43,830 nt of DNA from a virus. Its lineage: Duplodnaviria > Heunggongvirae > Uroviricota > Caudoviricetes. The position numbers are program-made. The first letter of the stretch is position 1, and every line of letters begins with the position of its first letter. The stretch lies in the IMG/VR virus record IMGVR_UViG_2839610755_000005; one strand, written 5' to 3'. Positions 9,001-12,000 of the stretch are shown here, one piece after another.

Positions 9001-12000
9001 ATGCAATAGTCGACACTGCAGTGGTTGATATATTACTGTTGCTTAATGCATTTTTTAACGGGCCAGGAAGGTCTTTAAAATTAAAACCTATTTCATCATG
9101 CAGAGGGAATATCTGTAAAAAATAATTACCTGATGTAGGATGAATATCTGGTTTTACAATGTTTAGCTGGACACCATATTTACCAGAGATGCCTGAAACG
9201 GAACTAGGTATCTCTAATGCCATTTGGGTAACATTGAATAAACCAAACATATCCAATGTTTTTTTTCCTATGGATCCTTCTTCAAGGTGAGGAGCTATAT
9301 ATTCGTCTAGCCCTGAGAGCAGACCTTTATCTTTTATCAAGCTCAGTAGAGCTGTTGTTTCACCGCATTCCGGTGCATGTTGCTGTATATCATCTGGAAT
9401 ATTAACAACAAATCCAGCTTGGCATCCTAGAGGTAATTCGGATTGCGGTATTTGTGTAGAGGGTATTTGTTCTGTTTGATGATGTTGATTGTTTTGTGAG
9501 GTGATTCCAGATTGTATGGTCGGTTGAATGTTCATAATAAATCCTTATTACATGTTTATATCCATTAATAATATCAATCCATTGATACTATTAGTGTCAC
9601 ATATCCGATGTGGACAGCTTTAATATATAACTGTTTGAATGCTTGATTGATGTGACTTAGATCTCAAAATTAAGTTGTTAAATTTACCAGTTTATCGCTT
9701 GAACACTTAAAATAAATTATAAATGTTTCTGTTATTGTTTTTTATAGTTTAAATTATTGTTGGTTGTATAAGCTGATTACATTTTACTCTAAGTGTTATA
9801 AATATTTTATACTGATATTAGTCTTATTATATATTTTTTTAATGAAAATGAGCATAAAACTAAGACATATAATGCTTGGCAGCTTTATGCTCTTCTGATT
9901 GGCTGTATGTTTGATGACAAAAAATTAGCGCAAGAGGACAAAAAATCACCTTGCGCTAATGCTCTGTCTCAGGTCACTAATCACATCTAACTCATTGATT
10001 AATTGTGACTCTAAATGTAGTGTTTTGTCGCGTTTTGCAGTCTATCATTTAATCAATTGTATAAATAACATAATGATTTTTAATGTGTTTTTGTGATTTT
10101 ATCCTCCTTCTGACATGGAAGTTGTTCGTTCAAAAATCTTATTAAATATCAAGTTGTTAAATCTGGTAAGTCATTATTGGTCAAAATAAAATCATTATCC
10201 GATTTCAATTTTGTCCCACTCCCGCCCGCGACTGTCCCTATAATGCGCCGCCATTGAATCAGATTTATGTCCAAGAAGACGTTGTGCAAACTTGTAGCCA
10301 ATCTGGTTCCGATATAGCCTCGCGGACAGACTACGTAGTTCATGAAATGTCGGTGGGTCTCCATCAAACGAGATCCCGGATGCATTTCGCGCCTTTGTTA
10401 AATACCGTGATACTGTGGCTGGAGAAAGTGGTTCGTGATAGGTTGATGCGATTATTGTTTCACTGCTGCTGGCCTCCCTGCATTTCTGTAGTGTATCAAC
10501 CAGTGAGATGTCGAGTGCGTCAATGGTTAGAGCCAGCGGAATGGCAATTTTGGCTCCTGTTTTACTCTGTCCAATGTGAAGATGACCATCGTTTATGTCT
10601 GACCACTTCATTCTGCACAAATCGCCCACTCTCTGCCCTGTAACGACAGCTAAATCCATTGACAGCCTCAGCCAGATGGGGAGGTGCTCAGCAGCATGGT
10701 AAATAGCGACATACTCATTAGCTGTCAGCCTTGAGCGCCTTACTTCTGACTTTGCTGCACGGGTTGTTGTTACTGGATTCGTTGCCACATGCCCCTCGGC
10801 TATTGCCCCTCGAAAAACGTCAACAAGGGTTGACCTGATTACTCTTGCGGAAACCGCTTTACCTTCTGCGACGTAGGTGTTTAGCATTGCTGCCACCTCT
10901 TTCGTTGATATGTCAGTGAGCGGTTTGTCCGGCAATTTTCTTCGAATTGCCCTGATTTTGCTGGCGTAGTCGAGTAATGTTTTCGGCTTGCTCCCCCTCT
11001 AGCTGAGGATTGTTTCATATCGATCAAGCCACGTATGAAGAGTGATTGAGTCAGTGCCTTTAACCCTGTCCAGCAATGATTCGTGCCCACTTTCGCTGAA
11101 AAGCTCAATGTTGGTGTGAATTCTACGAGCAATGAAATGCCTCGTGGAAGGATGCAGTGATGATTTTAATCCTTTTGATATTATTAGGGTACCAGATCTT
11201 ACTTACAACAAAGGATCTTTACAATGTGGATGATTAGAGGCCTGTGAGCCTGTTTAGGATTCTGTGTAAATGCCTTTTCTTAAAAGTGACCGTCAAGACG
11301 GTCACCAAACTCGATAATAAAGCGGCTCATTGCCATTCGCCAGTCCCTTAACGGCATTGTCCATTTCTGTGACGCGGCCTGGATTGCCAGCCACACCACT
11401 TTTTTTACTGACTCGTCCGTCGGGAACACCTTGCGTTTCCTGATGGCATGCCGGATCACACTGTTCAGCGACTCGATGGCGTTCGTTGTGTAGATCACTT
11501 TGCGGATATCTGCCGGATAAGCGAAAAACGTCGCCAAGTTAGTCCAGTTTGACAGCTAGCACCGGCTTATCTGCGGATAGCGGCAGTCCCAGGCCGCAGC
11601 AAACGCTTCCAGTGCCTGCTGGCCTGCCTCTTCTGTGGGAGGCTAATCGCTTTCAGGTCGCGAGTGACGGCTTTGTATTCCTTCCATGACACGAAGCGCA
11701 TGCTGTTGCGCACCATATGCACGATGCATAACTGGATGCGGGCCTCCGGGAATTCTTTCAGGCCATACACACAGGCGATGAGGATATCGTTCAGACCGCG
11801 GTTTTTCAGTTCAGTCAGCACATTGAACCAGAAATTCGCCCCTTCATTTTCGGCCAGCCGCATCCCCAGGAGCTCTTTCTGACCTGCGATATTGATGCCC
11901 AGTGCTAGGAACATTTTTATGATAAAAAATTAGTGCAAGAAGACAAAGAATCGCCTTGCGCTAATGCTCTGAAACAGGTCACTAATATCATCTAAATAGT

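Follow-up and report, generated by a model that had tools for sequence, protein, structure and literature searches.

What remains of an integrase gene that keeps its catalytic domain and an intact-looking attachment (att) site but is broken by an internal stop codon? The question is raised by a minus-strand integrase (int) stub in IMG/VR virus record IMGVR_UViG_2839610755_000005, a Caudoviricetes sequence of 43,830 nucleotides (nt) that is called the window here. Comparative sequence analysis indicates that the stub, at positions 10195 to 11121, is very probably a nonfunctional fossil of an HK022-type sib-attP-int module that was stranded among the effector genes of a defective ompW prophage.

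The stub comprises 308 codons and a stop codon, equivalent to residues 49 to 356 of HK022 Int, as delimited by translation, alignment, and Pfam matches. Its translation along the minus strand from 11121 to 10195 reads IHTNIELFSESGHESLLDRVKGTDSITLHTWLDRYETILS-stop-RGSKPKTLLDY...REWDKIEIG-stop. The sole internal stop is a TAG at 11001 to 10999, where the int frame reads ...LHTWLDRYETILS-stop-RGSKPKTLLDY.... From the TAG, the frame is open to the natural int stop codon at 10195 to 10197, and the open reading frame (ORF) list contains 246 codons of it (10195 to 10935, minus strand). The TTG “start” assigned to this ORF is merely an internal Leu codon, and the first ATG within it (MLNTYV...) would give a product of 230 amino acids (aa). 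The reading frame is the same on either side of the TAG, and the stub aligns without gaps to HK022 Int, to integrases of Escherichia coli, and to residues 49 to 355 of lambda Int; the lesion is therefore a substitution, with no indel. A sequence-only reading of this DNA had proposed a single in-frame TAG at 10999 to 11001 that arose by substitution and was followed by 246 open codons, and all of this is borne out.

Intact homologs supply the ancestral codon. In a codon alignment, HK022 int and two intact E. coli prophage int genes located beside mdtA read CTC AGC GAG AGG where the stub reads CTC AGC TAG AGG, and the intact relative P0001 reads ...ILSERS... at the amber position. Because intact HK022-type genes carry GAG (Glu89) here, the TAG represents a single G-to-T transversion at 11001 (C to A on the plus strand). 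At that codon, the HK022 clade has Glu and lambda Int has Ser89. The integrase had been described as lambda-like, which is correct in that it belongs to the lambda Int family, but its closest relatives are of the HK022 type. The best phage matches in tblastn searches (HK022, mEp235, mEp506, Gally, and Stx1a prophages) share 85 to 87% aa identity with the stub versus 70% for lambda and HK97 Int, and a search of 5.8 billion protein clusters gave, as its best intact match, an HK022-like Int of 357 aa with 87% identity. Judged by these alignments, the nearest family of the stub is the HK022-type integrases rather than lambda Int.

The stub has kept the core-binding and catalytic domains and has lost the arm-binding domain and the start codon. 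A Pfam scan matched PF00589 (E = 3e−38), PF02899, and PF22022, with the TAG falling inside the core-binding domain, and the R-K-H-R-H-Y motifs are those of lambda Int (R212, K235, H308, R311, H333, and Y342) in a gap-free alignment. The arm-binding domain, PF09003 (residues 1 to ∼64), had no match in the stub, while intact P0001 matched it with an E value of 1e−27. No ATG, GTG, or TTG upstream of the TAG would yield an Int N terminus; the in-frame sequence upstream of the stub is antisense nleF and runs, without an ATG, to a TAA 68 codons before the TAG. In HK022 and integrated relatives, xis overlaps the start of int. Here xis and the promoter region are absent from the sequence immediately upstream, and the tail of nleF is found in their place. 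Without a start codon, an arm-binding domain, or xis and its promoter, the stub is not a functional integrase of the lambda/HK022 type. It has instead the features of a pseudogene: its disabling lesions are shared by descent, sister lineages have gained further lesions of their own, and the searches described below turned up no intact allele. RefSeq labels it as a pseudogene in O157:H7 strain FRIK944 ([quoted passage not shown]).

The att site that adjoins the stub had been called intact-looking, and it proved to be complete. An HK022-type attP (POP′) occupies 9970 to 10198 on the plus strand, and downstream of it lies a sib/tI-like hairpin (GCGCAAG...CTTGCGC; 9925 to 9959, plus strand) that aligns to the “sib transcription processing site” of HK022 record X51962. 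The window from 10198 to 9925 is collinear with the annotated HK022 attP and sib. Motif coordinates place arm site P1 at 9970 to 9981 and P2 at 10001 to 10012. The core, CCTCCTTC-TGACATG-GAAGTTGTT, lies at 10103 to 10126 and consists of inverted core-type sites around a 7-bp overlap, and P′1 to P′3 (10168 to 10198) overlap the int stop codon. Phage sequence is present on both sides of the core. An integrated relative beside mdtA in strain C10 has the P′ arm alone in common with the window and diverges exactly at the core. Judged by its two arms, the site is an attP (POP′) and neither an attL nor an attR. Since both arms are phage derived, the Int of the stub would not have been used to insert an element at this position. 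The overlap is TGACATG in the window versus AGGTGAA in HK022 and AATAAGG in C10, which suggests that the ancestral phage had a target of its own, at another attB. The related attP on plasmid pO55 of O55:H7 strain CB9615 has a 10-nt unit, CCCATAAAAA, that is tandemly expanded to about seven copies in the P arm.

The 5′ side of the stub records more than one event. The sequence-only reading had the Int homology stop at about 11165, where IS256-like sequence would begin. The loss of the 5′ end stands, as the stub starts at HK022 residue 49, but both the position and the neighbor have to be revised. BLAST comparison with genomes that carry a longer stub, together with the junction sequences, places the end of the Int homology at 11121/11122, 44 nt further in. 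The adjoining sequence is a 3′ fragment of nleF (11122 to 11233, plus strand; 112 nt) that holds the last 36 codons and the stop codon and ends ...DLTYNKGSLQCG-stop (...SLQCG-stop). RefSeq labels this fragment “type III effector, missing N-terminus,” and its BLAST match is annotated as nleF. A remnant of an IS256-family (Transposase_mut) transposase, frameshifted and with an internal stop, starts only at about 11280 (11280 to 11914, minus strand; PF00872 on both ORF pieces, and the RefSeq annotation). We considered IS256 as the cause of the truncation and rejected it, because the nleF tail is the neighbor and a simple deletion, with no microhomology, accounts for the junction.

Relative to typical O157:H7, 1,674 bp are missing at this junction, corresponding to positions 5928 to 7601 of comparison record L004. 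The deleted segment held 68 nt of the defective int gene (int′), including a frameshift site, as well as a tail-fiber fragment, nleH1-2, and the first 458 nt of nleF. Of 5,426 complete E. coli genomes, 61 contain the 80-mer that spans the junction; among the full-length junction matches that were sampled, all four isolates were cattle derived and three of the four were named O157:H7. Lineage II O157:H7 has been reported to lack nleH1-2 and nleF (PMC1890555), and the deletion fits that absence. The present 5′ end of the stub thereby marks the exact endpoints of the nleH1-2/nleF deletion in a cattle-associated O157:H7 sublineage.

Most O157:H7, O55:H7, O26, and other strains have the ancestral stub, which is 68 nt longer than that of the window. 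This 995-nt form was seen in typical O157:H7 (ATCC 43890 and strain 9234), O55:H7 DEC5B, O26 H19, and a swine isolate, where it is followed by a 72-nt fragment of a tail-fiber gene, nleH1-2, and nleF. It begins at about codon 23 to 26, where it is fused to the tail-fiber fragment with loss of the start codon and ∼25 codons, and it carries a 1-nt deletion (−1 frameshift) at about codon 48. The Prokaryotic Genome Annotation Pipeline flags it as “frameshifted; internal stop; missing N-terminus.” The TAG is one of at least three lesions, namely, truncation, frameshift, and amber codon, and it appears to be a single lesion in the window because the later deletion removed the frameshift site. A separate observation concerns the tail-fiber sequence: the 3′ end of the tail-fiber assembly gene and its spacer, at 7113 to 7251 of the window, recur with 92% identity beside the ancestral int′ of typical O157:H7 (L004, 5989 to 6128). 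The effector locus thus holds two successive “after-tail-fiber” cargo regions.

These comparisons reveal the following history. The int gene lost its start codon and first ∼25 codons at its fusion to the tail-fiber-gene fragment, and it gained a −1 frameshift near codon 48 and the GAG-to-TAG change at codon 89. All three lesions are older than the spread of the effector block among strains of O157:H7, O55:H7, O26, O103, O111, O121, and other types. Because the block shares its TAG, truncation, and frameshift, it can be seen that nleA-attP-int′-nleH1-2-nleF spread as a unit among enterohemorrhagic and enteropathogenic E. coli after the death of the integrase. The O157:H7 sublineage of the window later lost the 1,674 bp with codons ∼25 to 48, the tail-fiber fragment, nleH1-2, and most of nleF, leaving a stub that happens to read in one frame except for the TAG. 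Such a stub would make no integrase and would persist solely because selected effector genes flank it and the time for decay has been short.

The pattern of substitutions and further lesions was examined across lineages. The ratio of nonsynonymous to synonymous substitution rates (dN/dS) on the stub branch is 0.18 (dN of 0.064 and dS of 0.356), compared to 0.11 between HK022 and C10, which indicates that most of the divergence predates inactivation. The stub of O55:H7 DEC5B has an additional CGA-to-TGA change at codon 82 and two nonsynonymous changes, with zero synonymous changes. In O111:H− strain 11128 and in RM9975, the 3′ part of the stub, the att site, and nleA have been deleted, and in TB354, the stub contains an IS3-family insertion. 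Plasmid pO55 has the nleA-attP-int′ unit, with int′ cut by an IS21-family element and frameshifted. These lineage-specific lesions fit neutral decay.

Three other explanations of the TAG and of the open frame beyond it were weighed. If the TAG were a sequencing or assembly error, the gene would be intact at codon 89. The exact 71-mer centered on the TAG occurs in 434 independently assembled complete E. coli genomes, and another 52 have it with one mismatch; in the three one-mismatch records that were sampled, the mismatch lies elsewhere and the TAG is retained. The corresponding 71-mer with GAG restored had no match at ≥99% identity among the 5,426 E. coli genomes. Exact-pattern scans covered IMG/VR, the Joint Genome Institute (JGI) metagenomes, and GTDB representatives. 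With lineage-specific flanks, they found the TAG in 13 of 13 IMG/VR contigs and 5 of 5 metagenome contigs, and the GTDB species representatives gave no match. No intact allele of the sublineage of the stub was found in the 5.8 billion protein clusters, IMG/VR, the JGI metagenomes, the GTDB representatives, or the 5,426 E. coli genomes. The recurrence of the TAG in hundreds of independent assemblies shows that it is not a sequencing error and provides the confirmation of the base that had been suggested from reads. Nothing was found in favor of an error, the chance of which is negligible given these population data. Readthrough of the amber codon, by a suppressor tRNA or in programmed form, would be compatible with the continuous frame and the intact catalytic residues, yet a functional integrase could hardly result: the sequence upstream is antisense nleF with neither a start codon nor an arm-binding domain, and the ancestral form was already truncated and frameshifted there. 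The search for an amber suppressor that had been proposed was carried as far as the window, in which a tRNA scan found no tRNA gene; an Rfam scan of 9500 to 15200, the region around the stub, found nothing. With its start codon and arm-binding domain gone, the gene would not be rescued by a suppressor in any case. The second stop gained by O55:H7 DEC5B and the deletion or interruption of the stub in other lineages also speak against readthrough, which we regard as highly improbable. Complementation in trans by the Int of the neighboring prophage Sp10 was considered as well and is unlikely, as this Int and the stub share 36% identity.

A somewhat less remote, although still very unlikely, alternative is that the part beyond the TAG is expressed as an armless catalytic fragment of ∼230 aa, starting from the ATG at ∼10887, that retains some activity and is maintained by selection; the fragment might, for instance, act like a topoisomerase, resolve junctions, or interfere with related integrases. 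In vitro, C-terminal fragments of lambda Int retain cleavage activity. In keeping with such a product, the 246-codon stretch is open in >430 genomes, its R-K-H-R-H-Y motifs are intact, a GAGG precedes the ATG by 8 nt, and some assemblies list the 230-aa ORF as a gene (P0002). However, the copies are nearly identical, so that an open frame needs no selection, and all three changes between O55 and O157 are nonsynonymous or nonsense. The post-TAG part has been deleted in O111:H− and RM9975 and is interrupted in TB354 and pO55. The fragment would have lost roughly half its core-binding domain, and a promoter and terminator scan near the stub gave counts that did not exceed those of shuffled sequences, with pI and pL absent.

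A nonfunctional fossil of an HK022-type module remains the explanation that we favor; no observation speaks directly against it, and two points qualify it. In principle, a truncated protein could come from the 246-codon stretch, which has intact catalytic residues and, 8 nt ahead of the internal ATG, a Shine-Dalgarno-like GAGG; this sequence is present equally in the functional HK022 int, where it is coding sequence. In addition, the next att relic in the window is of the lambda type and not of the HK022 type, and a simple two-phage dilysogen, with the same att on both sides, is therefore not supported. As both arms of its att site are phage derived, the module most likely arrived by tandem lysogeny with a later internal deletion or by recombination between lambdoid prophages. 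It is also conceivable, if improbable, that the resident attP could still recombine with a superinfecting phage that has the same overlap and a cognate Int of the HK022 family, or that the relic marks a past event of this kind. If so, the sib-attP would be a further “prophage-in-prophage” docking point that helps to stack effector cassettes, and the lambda-type attR, which lies 1.9 kb away with its captured attB-lambda flank, would be another remnant of that process.

The lambda-type relic lies to the right of the stub, at 11930 to 12161 and 14612 to ∼14650, with 11930 to 12137 preceding ISEc8. It has a sib hairpin (11930 to 11964), P1 and P2, and a core, GGCTTTTTATACTAA, at 12111 to 12125. 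Beyond the core, ∼75 bp match the K-12 ybhC-ybhB spacer immediately to the right of attB-lambda. The relic is an attR (POB′) with a captured chromosomal flank and looks like the trace of a bio-type aberrant excision; it receives no mention in the parts of PMC8112680 that were searched. A complete ISEc8 of 2,442 bp (IS66 family: tnpA, tnpB, and transposase) is inserted in the captured attB-lambda flank at 12162 to 14603, with an 8-bp target duplication, GTTTTTCG, at 12154 to 12161 and 14604 to 14611. This element is missing at the same spot in O26 H19, swine isolate PEC240, and O55:H7 DEC5B. Further to the right, ∼14674 to 14769 is ∼80% identical to a region annotated as tRNA-Ser in essentially every E. 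coli genome. Neither ARAGORN nor Rfam found a tRNA in this segment, which may be another captured and decayed attachment-site fragment.

By megablast, the window matches E. coli O157:H7; over 41 kb, its identity to strain FRIK944 is 99.97%. The gene order runs from the tail genes J-lom-stf-tfa through an nleG pseudogene, nleA, the int stub, the nleF fragment, and the IS256-family remnant to ISEc8, nleG, espM1, insertion sequence (IS) remnants, a piece of ompW, and a second prophage with its own intact int-xis. The locus is the effector region (exchangeable effector locus) with which the defective ompW prophage (Sakai Sp9/PPompW) ends on its right side, and Sp10 follows. The effector gene nleA (8210 to 9535, minus strand) always stands beside the attP-int′ relic, plasmid pO55 included. 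At 9781, a run of T's in the window lacks one base that is present in FRIK944 and the other O157:H7 genomes that match best, which is the sole difference across 9600 to 11400. In tail gene J, window positions 1344 to 2653 gave no BLAST alignment to FRIK944, and the flanking 1 to 1343 aligned at 98.8% identity with 13 gap openings. The J gene of FRIK944 is annotated as frameshifted, and the tail-tip gene differs between these otherwise nearly identical genomes. An exact copy of the 21-bp attB-in-PP_1 sequence (GTCATGCAGTTAAAGTGGCGG) is present at 20226 to 20246, immediately to the left of the ompW fragment and the Sp10 int. Nakamura et al. 2021 (PMC8112680) describe attB-in-PP_1 as a docking site for phages that integrate into prophages.

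The stub is already known as a correctly annotated pseudogene in a heavily sequenced bacterial lineage, and it is of little importance in itself, as nothing points to a remaining function; its modest value is that of a historical marker. A literature search on locus tags ECs1813 and Z6023 returned nothing relevant. Descriptions of the ompW/Sp9-Sp10 region have been given by Zhang et al. 2007 (PMC1890555) and by Nakamura et al. 2021 (PMC8112680); the searched parts of these papers contain no discussion of the ancestry of the int stub, its attP, or the exact endpoints of the 1,674-bp deletion. In PMC8112680, the PPompW effector loci are portrayed as degraded and rich in IS elements, and degraded int genes are marked in figures in which FRIK944 is included.

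Among known systems, the HK022 module (X51962 and NC_002166) is the closest counterpart. The two share 85.5% aa and ∼85% nt identity over int codons 49 to 356, the order and spacing of the sib hairpin, P1, P2, the core, and P′1 to P′3 over the int stop codon, and core half-sites of the same kind (CCTTn/nAAGTTG). Unlike HK022, the window has no xis and no first 48 codons, it has an amber stop at codon 89, and its overlap is TGACATG instead of AGGTGAA. Lambda Int (PDB 5J0N, 1Z1G, 1P7D, and 1AE9) aligns to the stub without gaps over residues 49 to 355 and has identical catalytic motifs, but it shares only 70% identity and has Ser89 opposite the TAG of the window. In their setting, the sequences studied here share the locus and gene set of the PPompW/Sp9 prophages described in PMC8112680 and PMC1890555, with nleA, nleH, nleF, nleG, espM1, and IS elements, the 21-bp attB-in-PP_1, the lack of nleH1-2 and nleF in lineage II, and captured chromosomal att-like sequences within the effector locus in common.

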